Shown: one piece after another, positions 2,278 through 34,880 of the stretch
How positions within the stretch are numbered: position 1 is the first letter of the stretch
Layout: each line of letters opens with the position of its first letter
Origin: a virus
Length of the DNA stretch: 34,880 nt
Direction: 5' to 3' (one strand)
IMG/VR virus record: IMGVR_UViG_3300002859_000001
Location: 1 to 34,880 of that record
Program-made: the position numbers and the translations under genes
The notes under the pieces: model-generated
Told to the model about the DNA's origin: nothing
Database searches by the model: none
The model's input: only the letters and a program-made list of their open reading frames with translations

Positions 2278-3984
2278 TTAGGCGAACCTGATCGTCGACT
2301 GGATAACTTCGATTGTCTGGGTTCCCTTTGTAAGCGTGAAGCGGTACGCCAGGCCGTTAGTCGTTGCGACGGTTGTGTTCGTGAATGTGTGAACGTACAG
2401 GTTGACCTTCGACGTGATGTCTTCCCACACCGGCGAAGCGTCGAAAGGATTGTTCGTGACTTCGCAATGAAGAACACTATCCACGGGACGATCCGAAGGG
2501 TATAGAGAAACAAAGCATTTCGTGACCTTTTCATCAGTAGAAAAAGCGCGGGAAGCGGCTAACCTTGTGACCGTTCGACTGAAAGTGATCACGCGCTGGG
2601 CCGTTCCTCCGGCGCCGTCGCTGACACTGATCGTCAAAGTATGCGATCCGGCCAGAAGGCGAAGCCACAAAGAAGTCAAGTCAGCCGTGTTCGTCGCTCC
2701 GCTTGTTGCGGTGTAGGTGCGAAGGGTAATTGTTTCAGCCCCATTCGTCACCGTTTCAGTGACAGTCAATGTCTGACTGGCCGATTCCGCGTCGGTCACG
2801 GTGTAGTTGTAGGTCAAAGGTGTCGTTTTTGCGCCCACGTTCTGATCTGAACCGCTGATCACCGGATTCGTATTGTATGAAATAGGCGTGGCCGTTCCTG
2901 TCTGGTATGCTGATTCAGCGCCCAGGGAATCGACCGCCTTCACGCGGACCTGATAATTCGTTCCGGACGTCGGGACGGTGTCTGTGATCGAAGTCGAAGA
3001 CGTGATCCCGATCTGGACATAAGCCCCGGAATCGACGCGACGTTCGAAGACATAATTTATCGGATTGCCTTCCGGATCGGTTGACCCTCCGGTGGTAATA
3101 GTTAAAGATTGACCAGCGCGTGGGGTTCCGTGAGAAATAGAAGACGGGGTTGTTGGCGGCTGGTTCCACTGGATTATATAAGCGCCGTCGGTATCCACAG
3201 AATCAGATACCAAGATTCCAGAACCCACTTCCAAAGCCGGCCGAACGCCATAGTTGCCATTGTACGCGTAGTTGCTGCTGAGACTGCCGTCCGTGCTGAC
3301 AAACCGCGCATAGTACGAATAGCCGGCGTACGGGGTCCTTAACCACCAGTACCAGTATTGCGTTGACGAAAGACTGGCGTTTGTGTATTCGGACGCGCTG
3401 ACAGCTTCGGCCGTTGGATAACATTGTCTTCGGCTTGCGCTGTTGAAATAGTCCCACAGCGTACCTTCTGCGACGCTGTTTTCGTTCGCCAGCCCGACTT
3501 CTGTGTTTGAAAGAAGATAAATCTTTCGGACTATGTCTTCATACCCGCCGCCGTCGGTGACGGTATTCTTTGCGACCCTGATCGTACTGTCAAGGATTGC
3601 ATTCCTGAAACTTTCTTCGAAGAATGTTAGGAAGCCGGCCTGGGCGTCGTATTCGTTGTAGTTGGAATAAACATTCGCATTATTGGGCGGCGCGTCGTAA
3701 GCGTGGCGCGCGCTGTACCAGGCCCCAGCGCCGGCCGCGCTATTTAGCCATTGATCAATATTTGACTGACTGTAACGGTTATTTCCGTAGCTTTTTCTGT
3801 TGCTGTCTGGATTGCTGGCTTCAATCGCGTCGAAACATTTCAGGGTGATCATTCTTTCGGCGACCAGCTTCGTTCTTCCGGAAGCCTGGTGTCCGACAAT
3901 AAATCGAATGACGCTATTGTTGTACTTCGTGTTTACTGACTTCACGACTGATCCAACGGGTAACGTCGATATTAACTTTGCCAT
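2278..3984 (-). CDS. DGR target 1: tail-fibre/receptor-binding-like protein with an N-terminal variable ligand-binding domain (WWLR...GVRPA) followed by FN3/Ig-like repeats
   Basis: 568 aa. Residues 217-252 are encoded by the repeat that matches the RT-adjacent template. Downstream T/S-rich beta-type repeats (e.g. YVFERRVDSGAYVQIG...YQVRVKAVDSLGAES) look FN3-like. GGAGGG RBS. Confidence 0.8.
   Translation of the reverse strand: MAKLISTLPVGSVVKSVNTKYNNSVIRFIVGHQASGRTKLVAERMITLKCFDAIEASNPDSNRKSYGNNRYSQSNIDQWLNSAAGAGAWYSARHAYDAPPNNANVYSNYNEYDAQAGFLTFFEESFRNAILDSTIRVAKNTVTDGGGYEDIVRKIYLLSNTEVGLANENSVAEGTLWDYFNSASRRQCYPTAEAVSASEYTNASLSSTQYWYWWLRTPYAGYSYYARFVSTDGSLSSNYAYNGNYGVRPALEVGSGILVSDSVDTDGAYIIQWNQPPTTPSSISHGTPRAGQSLTITTGGSTDPEGNPINYVFERRVDSGAYVQIGITSSTSITDTVPTSGTNYQVRVKAVDSLGAESAYQTGTATPISYNTNPVISGSDQNVGAKTTPLTYNYTVTDAESASQTLTVTETVTNGAETITLRTYTATSGATNTADLTSLWLRLLAGSHTLTISVSDGAGGTAQRVITFSRTVTRLAASRAFSTDEKVTKCFVSLYPSDRPVDSVLHCEVTNNPFDASPVWEDITSKVNLYVHTFTNTTVATTNGLAYRFTLTKGTQTIEVIQSTIRFA
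3231..3336 (-). repeat. DGR variable repeat 1 (VR1)
   Basis: 106 nt aligning without gaps to 5196-5301, with 14 mismatches. Every mismatch has a coding-strand adenine on one of the two sides. Confidence 0.8.
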
Positions 3985-5044: not shown

Positions 5045-5195
5045 AATAAAATCCTCCTTGCCGCTTATAGTCTGGGCGCCGTAGCCGAAGCCCTCGCGTC
5101 AGCAATCTTGTGTTTACCCTTGCGGGAAGGATATGCCCTCCTTTGTTGGGGTTCTCTGCTTTCAGGTTCTTCGCCTTACTCGGTCACGCTTTCCA
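5045..5195 (-). other. Non-coding spacer between template repeat and RT, presumed part of the DGR RNA
   Basis: About 150 nt with no credible ORF in the transcription direction, lying between the TR end and the RT start. In the Bordetella phage DGR this region is needed for cDNA priming. Confidence 0.4.
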
Positions 5196-5301
5196 CCAAA
5201 TCCGGCCGAACGCCATTGTAGCCACCGTACGCGTAGCTGCTGCCGAGACTGCCGTCCGAGTAGACAATCCGCGCATAGTTCGAAGTGCCGGCGTACGGGG
5301 T
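5196..5301 (-). repeat. DGR template-repeat-like copy (TR) in non-coding DNA between avd and RT
   Basis: Position is canonical for a TR. Homology to VR1 and VR2 starts at accccg and ends just after ggcgttcggccgg. The only ORFs over it are out-of-frame or antisense artefacts. Confidence 0.75.
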
Positions 5302-5327
5302 ACAGGGCATACCCTATATAAAGCCCG

Positions 5328-6761: not shown

Positions 6762-7292
6762 TTAACCTCCTTGTGGAATATGTTCGTGCTTATTTATACA
6801 AACAGTCGCCGAACACAAGACGAAAGCCGGCCGAAGGATCGTCTGTGGAATCTGCGTCTGCATTTTTAGGACCAGGTTCGCCGGGATCATCTGTCCCAGC
6901 ACGGCCACCAGGGCGTCGCGCTGATCGTATCCGGAAAGCACGATCCGGATAAAAAGTTCATACACGCCGTTGTCAAGGTTGACCGTGAAGTCCTGGCTTA
7001 CTGTGGATAAATACTTCAAAAGGCTTCTGTAAGTGTAAGGAAGCTGGTCAAGGTATTTCAAGAGAATTCTTTGACGCCTTGTTTCCAAAGTATCGCCAGA
7101 AGCCACAGAAAGCCCCAGAATCGCTTCCCAGCGTTTACACCCATATTCGGACAGGCTGACAAGGAAAAAGTCCTGTGGCGCGTTCTGGGCGTCCTGGGCG
7201 GCCTTTCCGAATTCAGGTTGAAGTCCGTTTGCGATCTGTTGAAATTCGATCAGTTCCCGGATATATCGCGGCCAGTAATTAAGAAGCTCCAT
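6762..7292 (-). CDS. Baseplate/tail protein, XkdU (DUF2313)-like
   Basis: 176 aa downstream of the baseplate J-like gene. The ...RWEAILGL...TLETRRQRIL... pattern is typical of that family. Confidence 0.6.
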   Translation of the reverse strand: MELLNYWPRYIRELIEFQQIANGLQPEFGKAAQDAQNAPQDFFLVSLSEYGCKRWEAILGLSVASGDTLETRRQRILLKYLDQLPYTYRSLLKYLSTVSQDFTVNLDNGVYELFIRIVLSGYDQRDALVAVLGQMIPANLVLKMQTQIPQTILRPAFVLCSATVCINKHEHIPQGG

Positions 7293-8361
7293 TCGTCACC
7301 ACCCCCAGGACAGGAATCGAAGCGGCGTCAAGTGAAATATTCGCCGTTCCGCCGTTAATCGTGGTTCCTGTGATGTCAATAACGCCTTCGACGTTCAGGA
7401 TTTTCGTTTCGATCTGGCTGACGCGGACGATCAGGTTTTCACTGTCGGCCCATACTTTCGCCAGGTCGTCAAAATAGTCTTGAATCGCTGTTTGGACTGC
7501 CGTCTGTACGCTTTCCCAGGTAACGCCAGAAGAAAAGGTCAGCGCGAAGGATACGTTTATCGTAACGCCGGTAACGGCCGCCACGGTTACGATATGACCT
7601 ATCGGCGCAATTCCCAGGCCTTCGCCCTGGTGTCCCACCGGATCAACGTCAGCCTGGACGAAGGCCACCAGTTCGGCGGAAGGAACGCTCCATTCGCTGT
7701 CAAGAAGGATAATCTTCACAGTTCCGCCGCCATTCCAGACAGGAATGACTTTCACGGCCCCGACGCCCTGTAACAGTTCGACCTTATTCTTATAGTCTGC
7801 GATATTTCCGCCGAAAGCCTGGCTGTCAAGTGATTCATAATAACGCTGACGAAGTTCGTCGTCTGTTTCTTCGTCTTCGCCAGGGATCAGGACGTCGGCA
7901 ATAGTAGCGGCCGCCAGTCCGTCAACAAAGTCGATCGGAAACAGTGTGCCGAAATATTCATTTCCGACAATTCCGGCCGTTTCTGCCGTCAGCTTAAACT
8001 GGCCAGCCGCGATCCTTTCGGTGGTTCTATAATTGATTTCGCCACCTGAAAAGCGGGTCCCGATTGGCACTTCATAGCCGGCGCCCTGTGCGTTTTCAAA
8101 ATATCCCTTCCGGACTGCGAATGTTGCGGTCTGCCTAAACACGGCCCTTTCCTGGGCTTTCTTCGTTAGGTCGACGCCCGTTTCTGTATCCGGGAAGGCG
8201 CGATCCATAATGGTTCCAAGTTCGATATACAGGACCGCCAGTTCGGCCGCCGCTGGTGCGATTGCGTCATAAATGACGGAACCTTCACGCTTGTCGACTG
8301 AATCAGACACACGCGCCAGACAGCGGTCCATGATGTTTTCAAATGTCATATTTTCATACAT
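7279..8361 (-). CDS. Baseplate J-like protein (XkdT-like)
   Basis: 360 aa. Synteny (gp25-like, J-like, XkdU-like) and a general Baseplate_J look (REGSVIYDAIAPAAAEL...). Confidence 0.7.
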   Translation of the reverse strand: MYENMTFENIMDRCLARVSDSVDKREGSVIYDAIAPAAAELAVLYIELGTIMDRAFPDTETGVDLTKKAQERAVFRQTATFAVRKGYFENAQGAGYEVPIGTRFSGGEINYRTTERIAAGQFKLTAETAGIVGNEYFGTLFPIDFVDGLAAATIADVLIPGEDEETDDELRQRYYESLDSQAFGGNIADYKNKVELLQGVGAVKVIPVWNGGGTVKIILLDSEWSVPSAELVAFVQADVDPVGHQGEGLGIAPIGHIVTVAAVTGVTINVSFALTFSSGVTWESVQTAVQTAIQDYFDDLAKVWADSENLIVRVSQIETKILNVEGVIDITGTTINGGTANISLDAASIPVLGVVTNGAS

Positions 8362-8800
8362 TCGCGCTTACCTCCGTTTCAATACTTACTTCACCGAATA
8401 CTGTCGACGCTGTAAATTCGACCGAAAGCGTTCTTTTGTCAATTTGATTGACGCTGACGTCATAAACGTCTGTGATCCGGCGGTCTTCCAGTAAGGCTTC
8501 GCGAAGAATCCGCTTGAATTCACTTGCTATCACTTGATAACTTTTGCCGACAATGGCGTTCATTTCAATTCCGTAATTCCAGGAATAAATCAGGTATAAA
8601 AAACGCTCCGATTGAAGAATTTTCATGATCGCCTGTTTCATGGCGTCGGTTTCGTCAATAAAACCACCGACACGCCTTGTCGAAAAGTCTATCTTGTACG
8701 TTCTTGATGTCTGGTCCTTTTGTTCAATTACTTCGACGTTCTGGCCAATAGTGACCGACGCCGCATTCGGTATCAATGCCATAAAATCACACCCTTCCAA
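8354..8800 (-). CDS. Baseplate wedge protein, XkdS (DUF2634)/gp25-like (alternative start 8782)
   Basis: Size and synteny. Small protein preceding the baseplate J-like gene. Confidence 0.55.
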   Translation of the reverse strand: MEGCDFMALIPNAASVTIGQNVEVIEQKDQTSRTYKIDFSTRRVGGFIDETDAMKQAIMKILQSERFLYLIYSWNYGIEMNAIVGKSYQVIASEFKRILREALLEDRRITDVYDVSVNQIDKRTLSVEFTASTVFGEVSIETEVSANV

Positions 8801-9185
8801 GAACCAGAAATTCCTGACCGCCCTGATTTCTTAACAGGACCACCTTGTCACCTGTGGATAACCCGAAATAGATTTCCTGGGCGGTTTCAAGGCCTGTCTG
8901 GCTCGTTTCAATCGGCTGTACGCCGTGAATATGGCTGTCAGCGGTTTCTGTGTTGTGTTCTGGGACGGTGTGATCGTGTGGGTTTATCGTGTGTTTGTGC
9001 GTCGCATAACCGCCGGACATGAATTCTTTCATCAGGACGATCTGTTTTTCGCTTATGTCGAATCGGTTATCAACGCGAATCACAAGCGGACTGACAGTTT
9101 TCACAGTCCCGAACATGAAGACCGTCGGCGCTCCCGCCTGGCCGGTTTGTTCTGCGACCTTTTTCATAGTTTCAAGTAAAGCCAT
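8787..9185 (-). CDS. Baseplate spike/plug protein, XkdR (DUF2577)-like
   Basis: 132 aa located between the hub-like and wedge-like genes. His-rich loop HKHTINPHDHTVPEH. Confidence 0.5.
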   Translation of the reverse strand: MALLETMKKVAEQTGQAGAPTVFMFGTVKTVSPLVIRVDNRFDISEKQIVLMKEFMSGGYATHKHTINPHDHTVPEHNTETADSHIHGVQPIETSQTGLETAQEIYFGLSTGDKVVLLRNQGGQEFLVLGRV

Positions 9186-9186
9186 A

Positions 9187-10137
9187 TCACACCACCCTTA
9201 ATTTTAGATTCATAGTTCCCTTAACAAGATCGTGACCGGCTTCTTCGACAATAAAGAACTGTCTGACGCCGATTTCCGCAAGGCCGATAAATAAAGCACG
9301 GCCAGCGCGGACAGAAAGATCGGAAAGGGCGCTGACCTCAAACGACCGCTTCGGGCGGTTGTATAATTCAATCATCATGTCGCCGCGTTCTTTGATCTGG
9401 GCTTCGTTCAGGCTGTCGTCCAGCTTTTCGAAGTTTTGAAGTATACCCCAGAATTTCATTGTGTTTGAATCCTGGAATATATAAACGTCACGCTTTCCGG
9501 TTTCCTTGTTGTCGCGAACCAGCTTGATTTTGTTATAGGTTTCGGTGTCAATGTCTGACGCGTAGGTGTAACCAGTGGCCAGGCTTGAATCACCGACAAA
9601 CAGGTCCAGCTTCGAATCTTCGACACTTGAAATTCGAAGGCTTCCGAAGTCGTCCCATAAATAAAACATTTTTCCGGTGTTTATCAGTGTTTTGTCCAGG
9701 GCTTTCAGAATGATGTCAAAAAGGGTCTGGTTGTCTTCGACCATTGAAGGAATGACATATCCCGTATTGACAAGCGTTCCGGTCTTGATCTGGAAGTCGG
9801 CCGCGATCTGTGCCGCGATCTGATCCGCCCGTTTGCCTTCGAAGACATAAGTGTCTTTGTTCTTCAAGTACCTGGTTTGATCGTAAGCTGTGACTGATAT
9901 TTCACCTTTTTCCGACCTGGACAGCTTGAAAACGTAGCCATAGAAAACACCTGTGTTTCCGTCCTTTATGGCCACGATCCCGCCGTGGTCCCAGGCGACG
10001 CTATTGTCGACAATGACAGTCAGTTCGGCGGAAGCGGGGGAACCGGTCCGCTTTGTGGTCCATTTTGCCGCCGATACAAGAGAAGTCACGTCGAAGGCTT
10101 CGCCTGTCTTCATATTTTGATAAAGTACGCTGATCAT
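9187..10137 (-). CDS. Baseplate hub / late-control-D-like protein (XkdQ-like)
   Basis: 316 aa following the LysM tail protein, as in the PBSX-like order xkdP-xkdQ. Confidence 0.55.
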   Translation of the reverse strand: MISVLYQNMKTGEAFDVTSLVSAAKWTTKRTGSPASAELTVIVDNSVAWDHGGIVAIKDGNTGVFYGYVFKLSRSEKGEISVTAYDQTRYLKNKDTYVFEGKRADQIAAQIAADFQIKTGTLVNTGYVIPSMVEDNQTLFDIILKALDKTLINTGKMFYLWDDFGSLRISSVEDSKLDLFVGDSSLATGYTYASDIDTETYNKIKLVRDNKETGKRDVYIFQDSNTMKFWGILQNFEKLDDSLNEAQIKERGDMMIELYNRPKRSFEVSALSDLSVRAGRALFIGLAEIGVRQFFIVEEAGHDLVKGTMNLKLRVV

Positions 10138-10814
10138 AAAGTAAATACCTGTCCTGGATATATTGTATATTTAGGGTTTCCGGTTCCCTTGTTGCGTCCG
10201 TCAATCGCCGTCTTATTCTTACTATAAATTTCAGGATAGCGACTGCCGTCGTTGTAATATTTCTTTGCAATCGCCCACAGGCAATCACCACGAACGACGG
10301 TGTGTGTCTTCGCCGGTGGTGGTGTGCCTGGGCGATCTGGTTCTTTAGCTTTAGCGACCACAGCGGCCGCCGCCACTTTCGGGGCCGGAAGGACGATTCT
10401 TTTCGGTGAATAATCCTTCCATTCGACCAGTTTGATTTCATAGTAAAGATCACCAACTTCGCCGCCGCGTTCTTCGTAAGTGAAGGAATCCACGCCGAAG
10501 CGAATGTTGATGTCCAGGTCTGTTCCGGTAATCAAAAAGCGAATAGGTAACGCGCTTTCACGCGATCCTTCTATCGCTCTAACAATTTCGATCGGTTCTT
10601 TGACTGATCCTGTGACATAAGGTGCGGAATGTGCCGGAAAAAAAGACTTCCAGGATACTTCCCGAAGTCCTTTCTGTCGAAGAATATTGATTTCGCCAAG
10701 TTCGATCACGGTTGTTTTGTCGTTCTTGCCGGCGGCCTGGACTGAAAGTTTATCAGGAAGGACCGGGATTGATATTTCCCGGCCTTCTATGATCAAGTTC
10801 ATTTTATAGGCCAT
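10134..10814 (-). CDS. LysM-domain tail protein (XkdP-like)
   Basis: C-terminal HTVVRGDCLWAIAKKYYNDGSRYPEIYSKNK...YTIYPGQVFTL is a LysM motif. Directly follows the tape measure gene. Confidence 0.75.
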   Translation of the reverse strand: MAYKMNLIIEGREISIPVLPDKLSVQAAGKNDKTTVIELGEINILRQKGLREVSWKSFFPAHSAPYVTGSVKEPIEIVRAIEGSRESALPIRFLITGTDLDINIRFGVDSFTYEERGGEVGDLYYEIKLVEWKDYSPKRIVLPAPKVAAAAVVAKAKEPDRPGTPPPAKTHTVVRGDCLWAIAKKYYNDGSRYPEIYSKNKTAIDGRNKGTGNPKYTIYPGQVFTL

Positions 10815-12721
10815 TACGCATACACTCCTTCCGCCGCCGCGACGAATTCGTCTTCCAGCTTCGTTTCGATTCTGCTGACCACTTCGTCAACGTCAACCTT
10901 TTCACTGATCTTCGCGTCAACGGCTACCGTCGGGGTCAGTGTTACAAAGTTCTGAACATAACGCATTTCGGCCACGTCGCGGAAGAATTTCAGGTCTTCG
11001 TCTGCAATATTGACGTCGTCCTTGATTTTCCCGACTTCGCCGACGCTTCCCACATTCGGAATGTCCGAACCGCCGGAAAACTTACTCATAATGTCTTCGT
11101 TTTCTGCGGCCTTCTTGTTTGCGGCGTCTGCTTTTGCCGTTGCGATCTCTGCCTGGCGCTGTGCTGTGGCCACGTCTGCGGCCGTCTTCATCTGATTCAG
11201 CTTCGCGTCGCGGTCTGCGATCTGGTTTTCAATCTGGGACCGATAGGCTTCAAGGCCCTGGTTCCTGGTCTGCTTTGCCGCTTCATTTTCAAGCTGTGCC
11301 GTTGTGCCGAATGTAACGTCCTGAATCAAATCAATACTGACGCCAGGGATTTTATTCAGCATGGAAATAAATCCGTTTATAATACTGATCGCCCCGTTGA
11401 CCATGTTTTGAAGAATGGTCAGGACGTTCGCCTTCATGTCGCCCATGAAATTAGCTATATTGACGCCGGCCGTCATAAAGGCAAGTTGTAACTTGTTCCA
11501 CATATCCATGACCCAGTAAACGCCAGTCATGAATCCGATCCGAACCCAGTCCCAGGCCGTCAGGATCGCGTTCATGGTGATCAGCCAGGCGACTTTGATT
11601 CCACCGACTGATTGAATCCAGTTATAGATCAGGCCGATAACGACGCCGATCGCTAATGCAATCCAGAACAACGGATTCGTCAATAGGGTCCTAAAGAAGC
11701 CTTCGGCCGCCAGGTCTGCGACTTTAGTATATAGGGCATGGATACCCAGCGCGGCCGTATAAACCGCCAGAGCGGCCGCCAGGCCATAGAATACAGGTGC
11801 TATCGTGGACCAGTTGTCATATATCCACTGGGCGCCGCTTCCGATCATCTGGATCACCGGCTGGAAGGTTTGAAGCAATGTATTTGCCACGATCGTTCCC
11901 ATTTGTGAAAAGGTCATGGGTATCTGTGCGAACTTCTTGTTCGTTTCGTCAGCAGACGCGAACATGGCATTCTTGATCACGTCGGCCGTGATAAGGCCCT
12001 GGGAAGACATTTCCCGCAATTCGCCGGTTGTCTTTCCCATGTATTTAGCTATTGACTGGGCCAGAAGCGGGGCGTTTTCCAATATTGAACGGAATTCGTC
12101 GCCTTGTAGCCTTCCGGCCGCCATAGCCTGGGTTAACTGGTACATTGCCGCCGTCTGTTCTTGAACGCTGGCGCCACCGATTACGAAGTTTTTATTCATA
12201 AGTTCGGTAAACGCGATCATTTCGTCGTTGCTTGTGAAGGCTTGACCGGCCAGAATTCCAAGTTTCGCGACGACGTTCGCCGTGTCGGAATAAGAAGCCC
12301 TTGACCGATTCGCCGAAGCGACGATCTTGTCTTGTAATTGCTGTGTAGTTTGAAGTCCATCATTGATCAGATCAAGCCGCGCGGTCGTTTGCGTCATGCT
12401 GTCGGCCAGGTTTATGATCTGCTTAACACCGAAGGCGGCGACGGCTGTCTTTATGAGAGTACCGACGCCGCCCCAGGCGCTTTTGATTTTGTTTGCTCCG
12501 TTTCCGGCGTCATTTTGTCGCCTGTTGAACTGTTCGACTTGCTGTGTCGCATTTCCGATCGCGGTTGTGCTTCGGTTGAAAGTAGCGCCAGGGTCAACTT
12601 GATCAGTCAAGCGATCCGTGGTTTCAAGTGCGCGATTGGTACGCGAAACGGCGTTCGTGATTCTGTTCAATGCGCTGGTCATTCTGTCCTGTATTGCTAA
12701 ACTGGTAGATACACCGGCCAC
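10814..12721 (-). CDS. Tape measure protein
   Basis: 635 aa with Ala/Gln-rich helical ends and a central hydrophobic block. Lies between the chaperone pair and the baseplate genes. GTG start with GGAAGG RBS. Confidence 0.85.
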   Translation of the reverse strand: MAGVSTSLAIQDRMTSALNRITNAVSRTNRALETTDRLTDQVDPGATFNRSTTAIGNATQQVEQFNRRQNDAGNGANKIKSAWGGVGTLIKTAVAAFGVKQIINLADSMTQTTARLDLINDGLQTTQQLQDKIVASANRSRASYSDTANVVAKLGILAGQAFTSNDEMIAFTELMNKNFVIGGASVQEQTAAMYQLTQAMAAGRLQGDEFRSILENAPLLAQSIAKYMGKTTGELREMSSQGLITADVIKNAMFASADETNKKFAQIPMTFSQMGTIVANTLLQTFQPVIQMIGSGAQWIYDNWSTIAPVFYGLAAALAVYTAALGIHALYTKVADLAAEGFFRTLLTNPLFWIALAIGVVIGLIYNWIQSVGGIKVAWLITMNAILTAWDWVRIGFMTGVYWVMDMWNKLQLAFMTAGVNIANFMGDMKANVLTILQNMVNGAISIINGFISMLNKIPGVSIDLIQDVTFGTTAQLENEAAKQTRNQGLEAYRSQIENQIADRDAKLNQMKTAADVATAQRQAEIATAKADAANKKAAENEDIMSKFSGGSDIPNVGSVGEVGKIKDDVNIADEDLKFFRDVAEMRYVQNFVTLTPTVAVDAKISEKVDVDEVVSRIETKLEDEFVAAAEGVYA

Positions 12722-23576: not shown

Positions 23577-23596
23577 ACTTGCAATCACTTGCAATC
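23577..23596. repeat. Tandem 10-bp repeat acttgcaatc x2 at the 3' end of the late-regulator gene
   Basis: Read directly: acttgcaatcacttgcaatc. Confidence 0.8.
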
Positions 23597-24110
23597 AAAT
23601 TCTAACGGCTTTTCCAGTCTTACGGTGAAGGCTTTCGTTCTCACTCATTTTCAATCTGTTCACCAGGGAAGCGATCGCCGCGTTTCTTCTTCTGGCTATC
23701 GTGGAAACGTCAACTTCCAGGGCTTCGGCCGCTTCTTCGTATGTACGTTTCGGATAATAGAGGGTAAGAAGGACACACTTTGATTTTGCGTCCAGACAAA
23801 GAACGTGTTGATAGACTGTTTCGATCTGGCGCTTTCTTTCTTCCAGTGGTGCGATTGCCCTTTCTGATCTCTTTTGGCGCCGCTCTATGGCTTCCATCAT
23901 TCGGATCATTTTTGCGTCTGGGTCGTTGGAAGACTGAACGCGGATCGTGTCATATCTCACCGACGGAAAGACCCTGGCCCGTATTTCTTCCAGGTCTGCT
24001 TCCAGTGCGGATTTTTCTGCGTCGATCTGATATTCTATCGTCCTGATCTCTTGCGTGTGATTTTGAAGTATGTCTTCTATGTTTTTCCGGATTCTTTCTT
24101 CTGCGGCCAC
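23595..24110 (-). CDS. Sigma-70 region-4-like phage transcriptional regulator (late activator candidate)
   Basis: C-terminal LTLYYPKRTYEEAAEALEVDVSTIARRRNAAIASL is a region-4-type HTH. It is the last gene before the terminators and terS. Confidence 0.6.
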   Translation of the reverse strand: MAAEERIRKNIEDILQNHTQEIRTIEYQIDAEKSALEADLEEIRARVFPSVRYDTIRVQSSNDPDAKMIRMMEAIERRQKRSERAIAPLEERKRQIETVYQHVLCLDAKSKCVLLTLYYPKRTYEEAAEALEVDVSTIARRRNAAIASLVNRLKMSENESLHRKTGKAVRI

Positions 24111-24145: not shown

Positions 24146-24544
24146 TCAGAACGGAAGATCATCATCTTCCCCGTCGACAGGTATGAAGTCTCCGTTCGCG
24201 ATTGCGTCTTCGACAGGGCTTCCGGATTGCCCGTCTGACTTCCTTGAATCCGCGAAGTAAACTGAATCGGCTATGACCTCGACGGCCCCGTGTTTCTTCC
24301 CGTCGTCGTCTTCCCAGGTGCGGGTCTGTATGCTTCCGACCAGGGCGATTTTTGATCCTTTCACGAAATGCTTCGCGCAAAATTCGGCCGTGTTCCTCCA
24401 AGCTATGACCTTTATGAAGTCGGCTTTGTCCCTGTTGAAACGCCTGTCAATGGCGATCGTGAACGAAGCAACGGCTGTTCCGCTTTGTGTATATCGTAGT
24501 TCTGGGTCCCTTACAAGGCGTCCCATAAGCTGACATTGATTCAT
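24146..24544 (-). CDS. ssb: Single-stranded DNA-binding protein
   Basis: OB-fold N-terminus (LMGRLVRDPELRYTQSGTAVASFTIA) and the canonical acidic tip DDDLPF. Confidence 0.9.
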   Translation of the reverse strand: MNQCQLMGRLVRDPELRYTQSGTAVASFTIAIDRRFNRDKADFIKVIAWRNTAEFCAKHFVKGSKIALVGSIQTRTWEDDDGKKHGAVEVIADSVYFADSRKSDGQSGSPVEDAIANGDFIPVDGEDDDLPF

Positions 24545-25436: not shown

Positions 25437-25795
25437 TCTTCCAGGCTCCTTTCTGCGTCCTCTGGCGTCAGGAATACAATTCTACCAATGTCTTTTTCTG
25501 TAAGTTGAAGCATGAAAAAGTTTTTGCTTATATCGCCAAACAGTGCGTTGAAATAGATACAGTCGCCGATCCCTATGTACTGGACGGTTCCTTCCTTTAC
25601 CTTTCTTCGACGTATAATATAAACCTTCCCGCCAATGGTCACAGGAGGGAATATTCCGCCAAGCGTTTTCAAGTCCGCCAGAATGTCGCGCGCCAGGTAG
25701 TCGATCACGCCTTTCCCGATTTCGAACCTGAACTTCTTTTCGTCCGCGTGATAGGCTATTCGATCTTTTATCCTCTTGATCATTTCTTCGCTCAT
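25433..25795 (-). CDS. Hypothetical protein
   Basis: 120-aa ORF, translationally coupled on both sides. Confidence 0.4.
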   Translation of the reverse strand: MSEEMIKRIKDRIAYHADEKKFRFEIGKGVIDYLARDILADLKTLGGIFPPVTIGGKVYIIRRRKVKEGTVQYIGIGDCIYFNALFGDISKNFFMLQLTEKDIGRIVFLTPEDAERSLEE

Positions 25796-26286
25796 TTTGT
25801 CACCTCCACAACGTATAATTTGACTGTTTGTCGGCCAAATTGAAGGGCTTCTTCGTGTGATTCGAAATAAATGTCGATCGCGTTTCCTTTGACAGCGGCG
25901 CCTTTGTCCTGGACGGTTCGCGTTCCGTATCCTTCTATGAAGACTACCGTTCCGACGGGGAAGACGGACCAGTCAGCGGCTATCGTGACGCCTTCCTGGG
26001 CGATTGCTCCGCTTGCTGTGTAGACGATCCCGTCCGGGCGATTCAGCGCCCATTTGCCGCAACATTTTTCACAAGGACAATAAGCCGTCGCTTCAACTTC
26101 GATCCATTCCGGTTCTTGTGGTTCTGGTTTTTCTGCGATCCTTAATTCCTGGACCTGTGGTTTTTCTGTCGTTGCCATGACTTCGGTTTCTTCCGGCTCT
26201 TTTGGCAATCCAGAAAGAAAAGTGGCGGCCATGATCAGCACGAAAACGACCAAAGTGATTTTAGTTCGTCTATTCATCAGCGCCAC
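25792..26286 (-). CDS. Signal-anchored 3D-domain protein (RlpA/MltA-like double-psi barrel)
   Basis: N-terminal TM (ITLVVFVLIMAATFLSG), a Pro/Glu linker, then EATAYCPCEKCCGKW...TASG...IAAD...PVGT...DKGAAVKGNAIDIYF, which is typical of 3D domains. Confidence 0.7.
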   Translation of the reverse strand: MALMNRRTKITLVVFVLIMAATFLSGLPKEPEETEVMATTEKPQVQELRIAEKPEPQEPEWIEVEATAYCPCEKCCGKWALNRPDGIVYTASGAIAQEGVTIAADWSVFPVGTVVFIEGYGTRTVQDKGAAVKGNAIDIYFESHEEALQFGRQTVKLYVVEVTK

Positions 26287-26554
26287 CTTCCTGGGCGGCC
26301 CTGGCGGCCATGATTTCCATTGACCGAAGGAACGTGTATTCAGAAAAAGCTAACTGTCCGATCATTTCTTCGGTTAGGATGACAAGGTATTCGTCGCCGT
26401 AACCGTCTTCGCCGTATGTACGACCGGCGCGCTCGTTGATGAATTCCAGCTTTCGCCTTGCGTATCTCTCGGCCTTTTCAAAGAAGGCGGGGCATATTTC
26501 AGCCCCGATCCTTTCTTCGACGGCCGCCTTTAAGTTAAAAGTCGTCGTCTTCAT
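26270..26554 (-). CDS. Hypothetical protein (start at MKTTTFNL; longer ORF-track version overlaps target 2)
   Basis: 94 aa. The ATG at 26554 overlaps the end of the upstream gene by 20 nt. Confidence 0.4.
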   Translation of the reverse strand: MKTTTFNLKAAVEERIGAEICPAFFEKAERYARRKLEFINERAGRTYGEDGYGDEYLVILTEEMIGQLAFSEYTFLRSMEIMAARAAQEGGADE

Positions 26555-27209
26555 CTTCGTCGCCCTCCGTGCCTGAAAGCGCTTCGTTCCGATCTGTGCG
26601 CCTGAATAGTTCTTCGACAGAATCAGAAAGATTGACTTCGTCTTCTTCCAGGACAATTTCGATTCCAGATTCCAGCCGGAAAGCCGGCCGAACGCCATAG
26701 TAGCCATCGTACGCGCCGTGGTAGTAGAGGCTGCCGTCCGTGTAGACAAGCCGCGCGTCGTACGAATAGCCGGCGCGCGGGGTTATCAGCCACCACCAGT
26801 CGTCAAGTTCAAGAAGGTCCTGTTCGGCGTACTTTTCAAATTGCTTCTGGGATAGAAGACCGATCTTGTCCTGGCTTGTCCCATATCCGGCGCCGCCCTG
26901 GTGATCCGAAAGGTCCCATTCAGTGGAAACGATCCTGTCTGTGTTGATCTTTCCGGCCGCCCTCAATGCCGACATGAAGTTTTCGTTCAGGTCTTTTCGA
27001 ATTGTGCTGTTTCGCCAGTCGTTCAGATTAAAACCTTCCGGGCGCTCGTATAAAAGCGGGAACAGGTTGAAAGGTCTGTCGCCGATTGATTCGGCCGTGA
27101 TAACAAGTGTCGTCCCGTCTGTGAAGTGTTCCAATATCCGAAGTGTAGCCGGTCCCGCGTTAAACTCTGACCCGATAGCCAGGTCCTTAATTTTTGTTTT
27201 TACTGCCAT
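26535..27209 (-). CDS. DGR target 2 candidate: stand-alone WWL..GVRPA variable-domain protein with acidic tail (alternative start 27227)
   Basis: AGGAGG sits 8 nt before ATG 27209. Same domain type as the N-terminus of target 1 (NDWRNSTIRKDLNENF ... DWWWLITPRAGYSY...GVRPAF). No signal peptide or TM. Ends EGDEDEDDDF. Confidence 0.7.
   Translation of the reverse strand: MAVKTKIKDLAIGSEFNAGPATLRILEHFTDGTTLVITAESIGDRPFNLFPLLYERPEGFNLNDWRNSTIRKDLNENFMSALRAAGKINTDRIVSTEWDLSDHQGGAGYGTSQDKIGLLSQKQFEKYAEQDLLELDDWWWLITPRAGYSYDARLVYTDGSLYYHGAYDGYYGVRPAFRLESGIEIVLEEDEVNLSDSVEELFRRTDRNEALSGTEGDEDEDDDF
26680..26783 (-). repeat. Third copy of the DGR repeat (VR2)
   Basis: Aligns without gaps to TR 5196-5301 with 22 mismatches: 9 have the A in TR, 6 have the A in VR2, and 7 have no A on either side. 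Confidence 0.6.
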
Positions 27210-27615
27210 TTTGTTTTCCTCCTTCATAATCTTCGATCACGACTTCGACGCGTGGGTTTTTCGGGTCCACAGCGAAGGAATCGGTGAAATATTCAATATG
27301 CTTCCAGCCGTCATTTTGTAGGACGCCCATGTGGACAAGGCTGTCCTGGACGAACTTCTTCGCAAACGCGATATTGTCTTTGTCGCGTCGCCTGTTCGGT
27401 TCAACCCATGTGTAATGGATAACGACCGGACCTGAAAACGTGACGCCGCGAAGCTGTGTTTTTATCATGTAGCCGATAACGTGTTCGGCCTGTTTCTTCA
27501 TAGACGCCGCCTTGTATTTGCCTTTTTTGCCGCGTTCTGCGTCTATGTACTCATTCAGTCCGGGCAATAGGCCCGGAACAGTGAATTTACAGCGCAAGAC
27601 TTCACTTCCTTTCAT
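27187..27615 (-). CDS. rusA: RusA-like Holliday junction resolvase
   Basis: 142 aa. RRRDKDNIAFAKKFVQDSLVHMGVLQNDGW matches the RusA D..N...K...D pattern. Confidence 0.75.
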   Translation of the reverse strand: MKGSEVLRCKFTVPGLLPGLNEYIDAERGKKGKYKAASMKKQAEHVIGYMIKTQLRGVTFSGPVVIHYTWVEPNRRRDKDNIAFAKKFVQDSLVHMGVLQNDGWKHIEYFTDSFAVDPKNPRVEVVIEDYEGGKQNGSKNKN

Positions 27616-28475
27616 TCCAGGCCAAGAAGCTTCCTGGCCTTATCTCTTCGATCTATCGCGTTCCCTGTTCGCCTGGAATCGCCGACCAGTTTCAGCCGGA
27701 TCTGACACATTCCCAGGACGCGGTCATATGTTCGCGAATGTGCCAGGGAAGGCGGGTTCTTTAGGTCTTCCATGGATAGGTTCGTCGTGACGATCAGTGG
27801 CATTCCGGACCTTGACCTGGTATCAACGACGTTGAAGACCTGTTCCACGGAATAGGACGTGTCCCGCTCGACGCCAAGATCGTCAATGACCAGCAATTTA
27901 TAACGCTGTAACTTGTCAATGAACGCCTGGCGTTCTTCGTCGAAGCCTTGAAGCCTGTTCAGGATTCGGGGGAAGTTCGTCACACTGACCGACACCAGCT
28001 TTTCAAGAAGGGCGTTCGCTATGCAACAGGCCAGGAATGACTTTCCGGTTCCGACGCCGCCATAAAACAGAATTCCGATATTGTCCTTTTTCATTTCCTC
28101 CCAGTTCTCGACGTACTTCCGGCATACTTGCGATACTTCCGGATTTCTCTTGTCGTCCTGGTCGAAAGTGTATTGAAGATATGCTGGATCGGTTATCCCG
28201 TCTTTCTGTAACATAGACATTCGCTGGTGAAATTCTTTGCGTTCTCGATCAGCTTTTTCTTTTGCGATTTCTTCCTGTCTGCATTTACAAGCCACGCCGA
28301 CGCGTCTGACTTTTTTCTGTCCGAAGCTTTCTGGAAGCGTAATTTCAAATTGCTTCCGCGTGTGACATTTTCCGCAAACAAGGAATCCTTCGCCGTCAGT
28401 GTAGTCGCCTTCTTCGTAGTTGTTCAGGCTTTTAGCCGCCAGACTGTCAAATATGGCATTTCCTAATGGTTCCAT
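27612..28475 (-). CDS. DnaC/IstB-like AAA+ helicase loader
   Basis: Walker A GGVGTGKSF, Walker B LLVIDDLG, and an N-terminal Cys cluster. Confidence 0.85.
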   Translation of the reverse strand: MEPLGNAIFDSLAAKSLNNYEEGDYTDGEGFLVCGKCHTRKQFEITLPESFGQKKVRRVGVACKCRQEEIAKEKADRERKEFHQRMSMLQKDGITDPAYLQYTFDQDDKRNPEVSQVCRKYVENWEEMKKDNIGILFYGGVGTGKSFLACCIANALLEKLVSVSVTNFPRILNRLQGFDEERQAFIDKLQRYKLLVIDDLGVERDTSYSVEQVFNVVDTRSRSGMPLIVTTNLSMEDLKNPPSLAHSRTYDRVLGMCQIRLKLVGDSRRTGNAIDRRDKARKLLGLE

Positions 28476-28479
28476 GCGA

Positions 28480-29250
28480 TCACCCCTTCAAGAAGTCTTC
28501 GTCGTCGTCGTAATTCTTTTCGGCTGTGGCCTTCTTGACGATCGCCGGCTGACATTCATCATTCCAGCGTTCACCGCGAAGGAATGTGGCTGGATATGGA
28601 ATGTACTGTCCGCCTTCTTTGGTCCATTGATCAGATTTGTTCCAGCGCTCGACGCCTTCCACGATTGCGGCTGTCGTTTCTTCATCAGGCTTTATCTGTC
28701 CCCAGGCTTTGATCGCGTCTTTCTTTCCGACCCGTTTCGGATACACTGACCAGAAAAGATCAAACCCGTCCACCACACCGGCGTCTTTTACGCCCGGTTT
28801 CGTTTTCGTTTCTCGTTCCTCGTTTACGTTCTCGTTCTCGTTTACGGGGACATTTGCTAACATTTGATTGCAAGTGTTATCACGCGCATCTGATTTCTTT
28901 TGCTTGCAAGTGCTATCAAATGAAACAGGAAGCGGAAACTTGCTTTTTGACGCTCTCCGTTGCTGGTGCTTGTCCCACGAAAGAAGTTTCAGATACTTTT
29001 TTCCGTCGTCTGCGGTGTATGTTGCGACTAATCCGGCGCGGCACAGTTCATCAAGCCAGGACTGAACTTTTGATTCCTTCGGGAACGATAGGGGAAAGCA
29101 ACTTCCGATTATGATCTTCGGGTTTCCGTGAAACAGGCCGAAGTCGTCCGCCTTAACAATCAGCCGATAAAACAGGACTTCCGCTTCCGGGGATATATTC
29201 GCCAGTTCTTCGGACGTGCAAATGGATTCTTTTATGATCCTGTTCGGCAT
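28480..29250 (-). CDS. Phage replisome organiser / DnaD-like replication initiation protein
   Basis: N-terminal IKESICTSEELANISPEAEVLFYRLIVKADDFG and C-terminal FDLFWSVYPKRVGKKDAIKAW are typical of replisome-organiser proteins. Upstream of the DnaC-like gene. Confidence 0.7.
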   Translation of the reverse strand: MPNRIIKESICTSEELANISPEAEVLFYRLIVKADDFGLFHGNPKIIIGSCFPLSFPKESKVQSWLDELCRAGLVATYTADDGKKYLKLLSWDKHQQRRASKSKFPLPVSFDSTCKQKKSDARDNTCNQMLANVPVNENENVNEERETKTKPGVKDAGVVDGFDLFWSVYPKRVGKKDAIKAWGQIKPDEETTAAIVEGVERWNKSDQWTKEGGQYIPYPATFLRGERWNDECQPAIVKKATAEKNYDDDEDFLKG

Positions 29251-32714: not shown

Positions 32715-33377
32715 ATGGCAAGCGTAAAAAGGTTCGCCGTATACGCTCTGCGTATAGTTGGTGTTTTATGGATTTTGTTTTGTATAATAGGCACGTTAGC
32801 GGTCGGATACGGATTTTTAGTCGTCGCTTTTCCTGGAATTATACCATTCTTTATTAAACCTTATCGGAAGTCGACGAAAAAAAGGATTGATCCTTTTGTA
32901 AGACAACAGATCGACCGCGAAAAGCAGATTTATTCTGAATCTGTTGATATTATGAAAAATACAAAAAACATTCAGACTTTCCTTCATAGGTTTTCGGACG
33001 TAGAACGCACGTCAAAAAATATCGTTTCGTTTTCCGGCTGTACTGAACAATTTGACAACGTCGGTCTGTTTTGCGATCTTCTTCCGAAAGTTATAGAAAA
33101 TGAAATTCTATCAGCCCGGGAACTTAAAACGGAAAAAGGCCGGAAGGATAGGTTGATGAAGGTTATAAACATACTGGAAGCATTTGAACGAGTTGACGAA
33201 GTTATGATTGAAGACGCAATTTCCAGACAGGAACATAGATTATTCTTGCTTTTAGAAGAAGGCGTTGATTGGTCAAAAGAGAAGACGCCAGATATAACCT
33301 TCACGCAACAAAAGATCAAAAATATGATTGATGAAAAAGCGGCCAGTATAATAAACGGGCGCGGTGATTCGCTATGA
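32715..33377 (+). CDS. Membrane-anchored hypothetical protein in the lysogeny module (moron; superinfection-exclusion/defence candidate)
   Basis: Strong RBS. N-terminal hydrophobic hairpin (IVGVLWILFCIIGTLAVGYGFLVVAFPGIIPFFI) then a ~160-aa helical soluble part. Visibly more A/T-rich than its neighbours. Confidence 0.6.
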   Translation: MASVKRFAVYALRIVGVLWILFCIIGTLAVGYGFLVVAFPGIIPFFIKPYRKSTKKRIDPFVRQQIDREKQIYSESVDIMKNTKNIQTFLHRFSDVERTSKNIVSFSGCTEQFDNVGLFCDLLPKVIENEILSARELKTEKGRKDRLMKVINILEAFERVDEVMIEDAISRQEHRLFLLLEEGVDWSKEKTPDITFTQQKIKNMIDEKAASIINGRGDSL

Positions 33378-34880
33378 ACGCGGTTATATATGCCAGGTAT
33401 TCGCCAGGCGGCGATCAGACGGAACAGTCTATCGAAGGCCAGCTTCGGGAATGCCGCGAATTTGCTGACAGGTATGAAATAACGATCGTTGGCGTTTATA
33501 GCGACCATGCAATGACGGGAAAGAACGACCGCCGGCCGGATTTTCTTCGTATGATCGCGGACAGCGAAAGCGGGAAGTTTGAAGCGGTGATCGTCTGGAA
33601 GCTGGACCGTTTCGCCCGTAACAGATACGACAGCGCGATATATAAGGCGAAGCTGAAAAAGAATGGCGTCAAGGTCATTTCAGCCAAAGAGAATATAACG
33701 GACAGCCCGGAAGGGATTATCCTTGAAGCAATGCTGGAAGGCATGGCCGAATATTATTCTGCTAACCTGGCCCAGAACATAAAGCGCGGCATGAAAGAAA
33801 GCGCCCTGAAATGCCAGGTCACGGGCGGAAATATCGCGGCCGGTTATAAGATAGGGCCGAACAAAGAATTCTTGATTGATCCGCCTCAGGCCGCAATCGT
33901 GAAAGAAATATTCGAAAGGTATGACAGCGGCGAAACAGTCACCCAGATCATAACGGCCTTGAATGGTCGTGGCCTGAAAACTTCACGCGGAAAAGCCTTC
34001 GGACACAATAGCCTTCATACAATTTTGAAGAACGAAAAATATATCGGTGTTTATAAATGGAATGACGTCGTAATCGAAGACGGCGTTCCTTCAATTATAG
34101 ATCGCGACCTATTTGACCGGGTTCAGGAAAAAATGACACTGAATAAACGGGCGCCGGCCAGGGCTTCGGGGAAGGTGGACTATTTGTTATCGACGAAGTT
34201 GTTTTGTGGTAAGTGCGGGACGAATATGAATGGCGAAAGCGGCACAAGCAAGACAAAAGGCCGCAAGCATTATTATTATAAATGCGCGTCAGCGAAGCGA
34301 AGGAAGGGCTGTGACAAGAAGCCTGTGAAGAAGGACTGGATCGAAAAACTGGTTGTCACGGAAACAGTCCGTCGCGTCCTGGTTGACCAGGTGATCGAAG
34401 CGATCGCCGACAAGGTGATTGAACTTCAAGGCCGCGAACGTGACAGAAGCATTCTTCGCGCTCTTGAAATGGAACTGGAAGGCGTCAAGAAGTCTATTGC
34501 GAATCTGGTCAAGGCTGTCGAAGCCGGTATCTTTTCAGAATCGACACAGGCCCGTCTGTCTGAACTTGAAAAAGAAAAGAAGGACCTTGAAGGGCGTGTT
34601 GTCCAGGAAGAAATTATCACGCCGAAGGTGACAAAGAACCAGGTGATCTTCTGGCTGGAACAATTCAAAAACGGGGACGTGAACGATCCTTCATATCAGA
34701 AGAAGATCATTGACGTATTCGTCCAGGCCGTTTTTGTTTATGATGATCATATAACGATAACTTATAATTACATTGATGAAAGCGGACGACCGCGAACGGT
34801 ACAGGTTGAAAAAGGCGACTTTCCGACCGATCCGACGAAGTGCGACGTGGGTTCGACTTTGACGTCTTCCCCTCCACCAA
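33374..34880 (+). CDS. int: Large serine recombinase (integrase), open at the window end
   Basis: AVIYARYSPGGDQTEQSIEGQ ... VIVWKLDRFARN resolvase catalytic domain, a recombinase domain, a CGKCG...YYYKC zinc-beta-ribbon and a coiled coil. No stop before 34880. ATGA overlap with the upstream gene. Confidence 0.9.
   Translation, partial: MNAVIYARYSPGGDQTEQSIEGQLRECREFADRYEITIVGVYSDHAMTGKNDRRPDFLRMIADSESGKFEAVIVWKLDRFARNRYDSAIYKAKLKKNGVKVISAKENITDSPEGIILEAMLEGMAEYYSANLAQNIKRGMKESALKCQVTGGNIAAGYKIGPNKEFLIDPPQAAIVKEIFERYDSGETVTQIITALNGRGLKTSRGKAFGHNSLHTILKNEKYIGVYKWNDVVIEDGVPSIIDRDLFDRVQEKMTLNKRAPARASGKVDYLLSTKLFCGKCGTNMNGESGTSKTKGRKHYYYKCASAKRRKGCDKKPVKKDWIEKLVVTETVRRVLVDQVIEAIADKVIELQGRERDRSILRALEMELEGVKKSIANLVKAVEAGIFSESTQARLSELEKEKKDLEGRVVQEEIITPKVTKNQVIFWLEQFKNGDVNDPSYQKKIIDVFVQAVFVYDDHITITYNYIDESGRPRTVQVEKGDFPTDPTKCDVGSTLTSSPPP
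34845..34880. repeat. 36-bp direct terminal repeat, copy 2
   Basis: Identical to 1-36 and lies inside the integrase reading frame. Confidence 0.95.

Follow-up and report, generated by a model that had tools for sequence, protein, structure and literature searches.

Diversity-generating retroelements (DGRs) that combine a tentaclin with a small, distant target containing a DUF6273 domain have been described in three recent studies (Baykov et al. 2023, PMC10743442; Egorov et al. 2024, bioRxiv 10.1101/2024.10.15.618418; PMC11792537). In the gut myophages nd4 and nd12, one template repeat (TR) is shared by two targets: a tentaclin some 570 amino acids (aa) long, with its variable repeat (VR) close to the gene's 5' end, and a second protein called tgt2, of 234-294 aa, which consists of a single DUF6273 domain between short helices and has its VR at the end of the domain (PMC10743442). 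In Toutatisvirus, a Hoc-like/tentaclin gene downstream of the reverse transcriptase (RT) contains the first VR, and a core-genome DUF6273 gene of unknown function, 17,480 nucleotides (nt) away from the TR, contains the second; this small target is present in 98.8% of Toutatisvirus genomes, whereas a DGR is encoded in 68.2% of them (Egorov et al. 2024). Lelie and CP11 similarly have a large and a small DUF6273 target, the function of which was considered "not entirely clear" (PMC11792537). Here we analyse the viral record IMGVR_UViG_3300002859_000001, all 34,880 nt of which are referred to as the window, where a copy of the DGR repeat lies within a small gene remote from the RT. The product of this gene, henceforth the small target, belongs to the same class as tgt2 of nd4 and nd12, gp24 of Toutatis and the small targets of Lelie and CP11. 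Published examples of the two-target architecture exist in other phages of anaerobic bacteria; the window mainly adds a new lineage to them.

As in nd4, a single TR is used in the window by a tentaclin-type target adjacent to the RT and by a small target with a single DUF6273 domain and the VR at the end of this domain, the three repeats being in register. The main target has the same architecture as the tentaclins of nd4 and nd12, which have 569 and 579 aa, respectively (PMC10743442), while the small target has the organization and size (roughly 215-295 aa) of the tgt2 class. However, nd4 represents a different lineage: tblastn aligned its tgt2 (OR777945.1, 30971-31510) with the small target over 84% of the query with only 30.6% identity (E=4e-10), and nd4 was found by protein-level search alone, since megablast of positions 25700-28500 against deposited phages gave no match. 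The group of the Faecalibacterium phage FP_Toutatis gave no tblastn match to the small target at E<=1e-5, and its host differs from that of the closest integrated relative of the window, which is of Gudongella type.

We consider it about 85% probable that positions 26680-26783 constitute a genuine second VR (VR2) of the DGR, located in a small target of the DUF6273 class, within a genome in which the TR has been eroded and the VRs have become stale. A repeat search recovered three in-register copies in the window, at 3214-3348, 5179-5313 and 26661-26795, in agreement with the sequence-only reading that had preceded this work; the latter had recognized a gap-free copy at 26783-26680, encoding residues 149-183 of a protein of ~225 aa that would share its type of domain with the N-terminus of the fibre target and lie about 21 kb from the RT. 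The protein has 224 aa, DUF6273 is detected in both targets (E=1e-13 in the small one, E=4e-39 in the main one) and the distance from the RT is 21.5 kb along the window, or about 13.5 kb the other way round the closed contig. The RT adjoining the TR is of DGR type according to its RVT_1 match (E=2e-18) and its IGxxxSQ and YMDD motifs. VR2 is 84% identical to the VR of the main target (VR1) over 104 nt, but gap-free alignment of the 150 nt to either side leaves only 25-30%; BLASTP aligned the two proteins only along roughly 60 residues around the VR.

Could this similarity be a relic of shared domain ancestry, or of an ancient duplication, in a segment that is not, or never was, a DGR target? 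The numbers obtained within the window may seem to point in this direction. VR2 has 21 mismatches to the resident TR along 102 nt, of which 9 coincide with TR adenines, 6 show an adenine in the VR only and 6 do not involve adenine (the earlier count of 22 mismatches, 7 of which without adenine, was essentially correct). Consequently, 12 of the 21 mismatches do not fall at TR adenines, and VR2 is nearer to VR1 than to the TR. VR1, in turn, shows 14 mismatches to the TR, 6 of them at TR adenines, all 14 having an adenine on one side. Yet the similarity ends exactly at the borders of the TR homology, and a very different picture emerges from the relatives of the window, for which we collected 27 related viral contigs using the small-target protein and 22 TR loci using a TR-specific DNA pattern. 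In seven related genomes, 90 of the 91 mismatches between VR2 and its own TR (102 nt compared) coincide with TR adenines; the same applies to 58 of 58 mismatches in the first 102 nt of VR1, which was recovered in five of the seven genomes. Moreover, lineage-specific TR polymorphisms that do not involve adenine (such as GGCACGCTC, GCCTGGAGCGGCTAC and GCCAGC) recur in VR2 and VR1 of the same genome, and therefore the VRs have been repeatedly rewritten from the resident TR.

The distribution of variation among close orthologues leads in the same direction. Thirteen orthologues that are near-identical elsewhere have a nucleotide diversity of 0.51 at the 31 sites corresponding to TR adenines, compared with 0.0098 at the other 71 sites of the VR, about 50-fold lower, and 0.036 outside the VR; variable sites include 29 of the 31 adenine positions but only 2 of the 71 others, both of which are TR polymorphisms. 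At the protein level, the residues of highest entropy in an alignment of 96 sequences (145, 148, 150, 151, 154, 156, 162-165, 168, 170 and 171) match the AAC and AAT codons of the TR, and invariant framework residues are interspersed between them. The sequence-only reading had proposed that variation among relatives should be concentrated at the TR-adenine codons, and this is what the relatives display. Altogether, these comparisons strongly support the small target as a DGR target for the whole family, for which descent as a relic paralogue is already contradicted; we assign very little likelihood to such a relic in the window as well, also because the loss of adenines from the TR, discussed below, accounts for the mismatches without adenine. 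Two contigs carry lesions at this locus: in L026 (5243-5350), a deletion of 1 nt in VR2 causes a frameshift in the orthologue, so that either the gene is a pseudogene or this hypervariable stretch has been misassembled; in L008 (IMGVR_UViG_3300029893_000123, about 3850 in the coordinates of the locus), a natural deletion equivalent to positions 26793-24131 of the window has its start 10 nt upstream of VR2. Lost with it are VR2, the following open reading frame (ORF) of 94 aa (orf94), the 3D-domain gene and that for the single-stranded DNA-binding protein (SSB), and the small target is left truncated at residue 144.

In evolutionary terms, the question then becomes: How can VR2 follow the rule of adenine substitution in the relatives compared and not in the window? 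The most plausible answer lies in the template. The TR of the window has only 17 adenines in 102 nt, whereas the TRs of its relatives have the canonical, AAC/AAT-rich composition with 27-32 adenines (30-31 in close relatives). The closest relative, a contig of 34.5 kb (L004/L040), has an RT identical to that of the window in 375 of 376 residues, but between the TRs of the two there are 15 differences in 106 nt, including 13 A-to-N changes on the sense strand. Around the TR, the RT gene differs by 1.9% and the spacer by 1.3%. Among the 23 TRs collected, erosion to this extent is seen only in the window, the others presenting milder A/T polymorphisms at adenine positions, such as TAC versus AAC codons. 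When a reconstructed ancestral TR is taken as the reference, all 13 mismatches of the window TR and all 11 of VR1 fall at adenines, as do 17 of the 20 mismatches of VR2; two of the three exceptions are T-to-C changes in third codon position. Thus, the TR of the window appears to have itself passed through adenine mutagenesis. Mis-homing of the cDNA into the TR could have been responsible, as could conversion of the TR from a VR.

Both VRs retain adenines at positions where the window TR has G, T or C and, therefore, neither has been written from the present TR. At the sites changed in both the TR and VR1, all five derived bases are common to the two, while VR2 differs at three of the five. From this pattern we infer that VR2 may have last been written before the erosion began and VR1 from an intermediate form of the TR, which then would have been eroded further. 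The sequence-only reading had cautioned that VR2 could be an older, diverged paralogue that is no longer a live target. Its first part does not stand, because the mismatches without adenine derive from the loss of 13 adenines in the TR and not from drift of VR2; its second part may well hold for this genome, in which VR2 is apparently no longer rewritten and looks older than VR1. VR2 would hence be a real but currently stale target, and the DGR system may be decaying in the window.

An alternative view is that the odd TR is an artefact of assembly, with VR-derived reads of a mixed population threaded into the TR locus, or the product of a cassette swapped from another phage; in either case VR2 could be fully live, as the target of an intact TR in the real genome. 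The window is indeed a metagenomic-style contig, and assemblers are known to stumble on hypervariable repeats, of which the frameshifted VR2 of L026 may be an example. Nevertheless, the window TR retains its TR-specific flanks, as well as the TR-specific A in ...CCGGATTT, and it matches neither of the current VRs (14 and 21 mismatches). Exact runs shared by TR and VRs are only about 20 nt when assessed by eye, below the k-mers expected for final contigs, and no breakpoint interrupts the 98-99% identity to L040 of the RT and spacer beside the TR. These considerations render an artefact, or a swapped cassette, improbable. With erosion as the favoured explanation, the window provides a natural case of a DGR template worn by adenine-type mutagenesis beside a sister phage with an intact template, and template erosion could be one of the ways in which DGRs die. 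A search of the literature on natural self-mutagenesis of TRs found nothing explicit. The pair of eroded and intact TRs also constitutes a natural control for measuring retrohoming at near and remote targets.

According to the known mechanism of DGRs, the avd-TR-RT cassette (5783-3914) would produce TR RNA, which the RT would copy into cDNA with misincorporation opposite the template adenines; this cDNA would then replace any DNA provided with the matching 3' recognition sequence. In the window, such a sequence would be GGCGTTCGGCCGG-C-TTT, which is present in both VRs, the C being replaced by A in the TR. Every aligned copy of VR1 and VR2 ends with GGCGTTCGGCCGGCTTT, while 23 of 23 TRs read ...CCGGATTT, so that GGCGTTCGGCCGGCTTT is a putative element of the IMH (initiation of mutagenic homing) type common to the VRs, from which the TR form (IMH*) differs. 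One template would thereby rewrite two genes, that for the tentaclin-type protein of 568 aa beside the RT and that for the DUF6273 protein of 224 aa lying 21 kb off. As the comparative data show, adenine-mutagenised sequence derived from the TR retrohomes into two loci sharing GGCGTTCGGCCGGCTTT. The 3' side of VR2 in the window can form the structure GCCGG-CTTT-CCGGC, which the equivalent sequence of the clade of L009, CTTTCTTCG, cannot form.

This evidence needs to be weighed against several points that are unfavourable to the interpretation of VR2 as a genuine VR with an eroded template. The pattern of mismatches restricted to TR adenines fails in the window itself, for VR2 (9/21) as for VR1 (6/14), and the ancestral TR restoring it is a reconstruction from the three closest relatives. 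The variation documented for VR2 is that between related genomes, and DGR activity may have been lost in the window genome. DNA folding 3' of the VRs gave no hairpin better than those of shuffled sequence, and none that is conserved. Structural modelling is also of limited help: the AlphaFold2 model of the small target, built from the alignment of 96 sequences, has a mean pLDDT (predicted local distance difference test) of 66, falling to about 40 over residues 142-170, which include the VR hairpin, and a Foldseek search with this model found no match in PDB and BFVD at E<=0.001.

Considering now the small target gene in its own right, the third repeat copy is held by an ORF of 230 aa (26535-27227), for which an upstream ATG at 27227 is an alternative start. 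The real start is most likely the ATG at 27209 (MAVKTKIKDL), because it is associated with an AAGGAGG ribosome-binding site and the N-terminus that it produces is conserved in all orthologues. In the numbering of the 230-aa ORF, DUF6273 spans residues 64-186 and the VR residues 149-183, at the C-terminal end of the domain. The protein also matches phrog_9958, a family of unknown function (E=1.7e-66). Among the best 120 of 339 homologues, nearly all are annotated as DUF6273, and several of their clusters at 90% identity contain from hundreds to more than 2000 distinct member sequences. A peculiarity of the window is the in-frame loss of 11 residues (ALLEGFTTRQL, within 26535-26640) that are present in the other homologues inspected; this loss removes the first half of the conserved helix following the lectin-like domain and is unique to the window among the alignments inspected.

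The lectin-like fold of the small target, of C-type and with the VR as a surface beta-hairpin, is a prediction from its Pfam membership and from the published models of its homologues (PMC10743442). A profile search of PDB sequences produced a sole match, to an IgA protease anchored in the cell wall and with DUF6273 as its N-terminal domain (9qa6_A, E=9e-5), a domain for which the corresponding paper states no ligand. DUF6273 is the only domain recognized by Pfam in the small target, and the model consists of one domain plus a C-terminal helix, with no beta-prism or beta-sandwich attachment domain. The protein is acidic (pI 4.4, net charge -22) and devoid of cysteines. As anticipated by the sequence-only reading, it lacks signal and transmembrane segments (Kyte-Doolittle maximum of 0.83 over 19 residues) and terminates with EGDEDEDDDF. 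Most aligned members of the family likewise end in F or W. This tail resembles the tip of the SSB encoded by the same phage, GEDDDLPF, while none of the aligned tails has the L/I-P that precedes the terminal aromatic residue in such a tip. That the tail docks the small target to the replisome is speculation. The acidic tail is not a general feature of the tgt2 class, for it is absent from nd4_tgt2, which does not end with an acidic stretch and F or W, and from Toutatis gp24, which ends with ...KSRAEE.

The window is circularly closed, as its ends are identical (1-36 = 34845-34880), and a serine recombinase gene crosses the window end, from 33374 to 34880. The idea of a phage without integrase is thus ruled out, and the presence of this gene indicates a temperate phage. 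A relative ~80% identical to the window (L052, contig of 172 kb) is integrated as a prophage in Gudongella oleilytica, where a glutamate synthase gene of the bacterium and a serine recombinase flank it; the host of the window is, by extension, likely to be a Gram-positive anaerobe of Tissierellia type.

The features of the DGR and of the region around the small target are collected in table 1. On the minus strand, genes follow the order PD-(D/E)XK nuclease, two unknown genes, DnaC-like loader, RusA, small target, orf94, 3D-domain protein, two small genes (one with DUF7694) and SSB, continuing with the sigma-70 region-4-like regulator, a terminator-like hairpin, TerS, TerL and portal. The small target thus has rusA on one side and ssb on the other, precedes the sigma-like regulator and terminase, and is not encoded with the cassette or the structural genes. 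It shares 23 nt with the end of rusA (stop codon at 27187) and 20 nt with the start of orf94 (ATG at 26554), overlaps that had been noticed from the sequence at the outset together with the embedding among recombination and replication genes. About 25 relatives keep this order from DnaC to TerL, and the prophage of G. oleilytica shows the same order; there the array begins at a divergent repressor/Cro-type switch beside the serine recombinase. Promoter-like sites at 32285-32201 and the terminator-like hairpin preceding the terminase genes fit an early operon, but weakly, since the scan for promoters and terminators found as many sites as in shuffled sequence.

Table 1. Location of the DGR components, the small target and its neighbouring genes in the window
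Feature	Coordinates	Strand	Remarks
Main DGR target, 568 aa, tentaclin architecture	2278..3984	-	N-terminal DUF6273 (Pfam E=4e-39), then Ig-like; weak Big_9 match
VR1	3231..3336	-	In N-terminal DUF6273 domain of the 568-aa target; in-register repeat
DGR reverse transcriptase, 376 aa	3914..5044	-	Pfam RVT_1 E=2e-18; IGNHTSQ and YMDD motifs in translation
Template repeat (TR)	5196..5301	-	Between avd and RT; 17 adenines in 102 nt compared
avd-like accessory gene, 151 aa	5328..5783	-	Upstream of TR, canonical position; position kept in relatives
Sigma-70 region-4-like regulator	23595..24110	-	Last gene ahead of terminase; terminator-like hairpin follows, 23532-23514
Phage SSB, C-terminus GEDDDLPF	24146..24544	-	Pfam SSB E=9e-30; phrog_44
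3D-domain protein, N-terminal hydrophobic anchor	25792..26286	-	Pfam 3D E=1.2e-16; phrog_22529; Kyte-Doolittle maximum 2.3
94-aa ORF (orf94), function unknown	26270..26554	-	Syntenic in relatives; without match in Pfam or PHROG
Small DGR target gene (tgt2 class), 224 aa	26535..27209	-	Single DUF6273 domain, short helix, acidic tail
Acidic C-terminal tail EGDEDEDDDF	26538..26567	-	Family-conserved D/E-rich run, ends F or W; disordered in model
VR2, remote variable repeat	26680..26783	-	Encodes TPRAGYSYDARLVYTDGSLYYHGAYDGYYGVRPA; in-register repeat in small target
RusA-like Holliday-junction resolvase	27187..27615	-	phrog_1682 E=1e-43; weak Pfam RusA; stop overlaps small-target start
DnaC-like helicase loader	27612..28475	-	phrog_50 E=1.7e-55; Pfam IstB_IS21

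Some details of these regions deserve mention. The avd-like ORF matches bAvd only weakly (E=2.9e-4, 21.7 bits, the Pfam cut-off being 40), with a similarly weak match to 23S_rRNA_IVP (E about 3e-4). Over 71 nt (3914-3984), the RT gene at its 3' end and the tentaclin gene at its 5' end overlap in different frames. In the contig L009 (IMGVR_UViG_3300045988_188013, 15.6 kb), the avd-TR-RT-tentaclin cassette is found at 7084-12217, about 2 kb downstream of the 3D-domain gene and not beyond the structural genes, as either a rearranged genome or a chimeric contig would have it. Two homologues of the small target, P0011 and P0055, end with ...YEGGKQNGSKNK, which corresponds to the C-terminus of RusA; in the window, this C-terminus is encoded over the ribosome-binding site and the start of the small target gene. 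The ends of P0011 and P0055 suggest duplication or recombination of the junction between rusA and the small target. The 3D-domain protein, which has a muralytic-type fold, is the product of the second early-operon gene downstream of the small target; in FP_Toutatis, too, a gene with a 3D domain (gp16) precedes the DUF6273 gene gp24 by a few kb.

The non-structural placement of the small target is a recurring feature of its class, shared by the family of the window, nd4 and Toutatis. The gene for nd4_tgt2 adjoins those annotated as DNA polymerase III alpha subunit and SSB, while Toutatis gp24 lies between lysogeny genes and the genes for a replication initiator and antiterminator Q, with the 3D-domain gene nearby. 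In the portion of their text available to us, the authors of the nd4 and nd12 study read tgt2 as Mtd-like and make no mention of its replication-module context (PMC10743442). What is then the function of a diversified protein encoded in such a position? The small target may be inferred to be a soluble single-domain binder, synthesized in the cytoplasm from the early operon. Beyond this, we lean slightly towards a non-virion protein, either an intracellular or a lysis-released binder, to which we give a little short of an even chance; a receptor-binding protein associated with the virion is a possibility that we regard as tentative, and other functions seem unlikely. The slight lean is due to the position in the operon, to the absence of an attachment domain and to the retention of the small target as a core gene in Toutatisvirus, where 68.2% of the genomes encode a DGR.

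The tentative possibility of a receptor-binding protein would envisage the small target as an Mtd-like or accessory binder carried on the particle even if encoded outside the structural module, the DGR then diversifying two virion-exposed binders. To our knowledge, every phage DGR target that has been characterised by experiment is a protein of the virion. The same framing is adopted in PMC8144416, and both Baykov et al. and Egorov et al. propose, as speculation, a receptor-binding role for the small target. Furthermore, DUF6273 is found in secreted or surface proteins of bacteria such as the IgA protease of 9qa6_A, and an early product would persist until the late assembly of virions. Conversely, the start and stop of the gene overlap genes of recombination and replication, ahead of the sigma-like regulator and terminase, and nd4_tgt2 and Toutatis gp24 also lie outside the blocks of structural genes. 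Neither Pfam nor the model indicates a beta-prism of Mtd type, a beta-sandwich or any other attachment domain, and we found no proteomic support in the literature searched. The non-structural placement, which is not discussed in the small-target literature that we searched, argues for testing the assumption of receptor binding.

An intracellular role of the small target is plausible, the pointers to it being the gene context and the absence of an export signal. A more specific version of it, namely a non-virion, early cytoplasmic binder that would be diversified by the DGR against, for instance, host defence sensors or competing phages, with the tail perhaps docking to replication or recombination proteins, is quite unlikely in our estimate. 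If true, it would be the first phage DGR directed at an intracellular ligand.

The comparison with the prototype DGR target, Mtd from phage BPP-1 of Bordetella, summarizes what is familiar and what is different in the small target. Both proteins are diversified at TR adenines by an avd-TR-RT cassette, and the variable residues of Mtd lie at the C-terminal end of a lectin-like domain, as they do in the published models of DUF6273 targets. However, Mtd is a trimer of 381 aa which attaches to tail fibres via a beta-prism and a beta-sandwich and is encoded beside the cassette, whereas the small target has none of these domains and lies 21 kb off. DGR-diversified sensors of multicellular bacteria are cytoplasmic. 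They provide the nearest precedent found for a DGR target that is possibly not exposed on a surface (PMC10907252); yet they are large cellular proteins of conflict systems equipped with signalling domains, while the protein of the window is small and stand-alone, with no effector domain recognized by Pfam.

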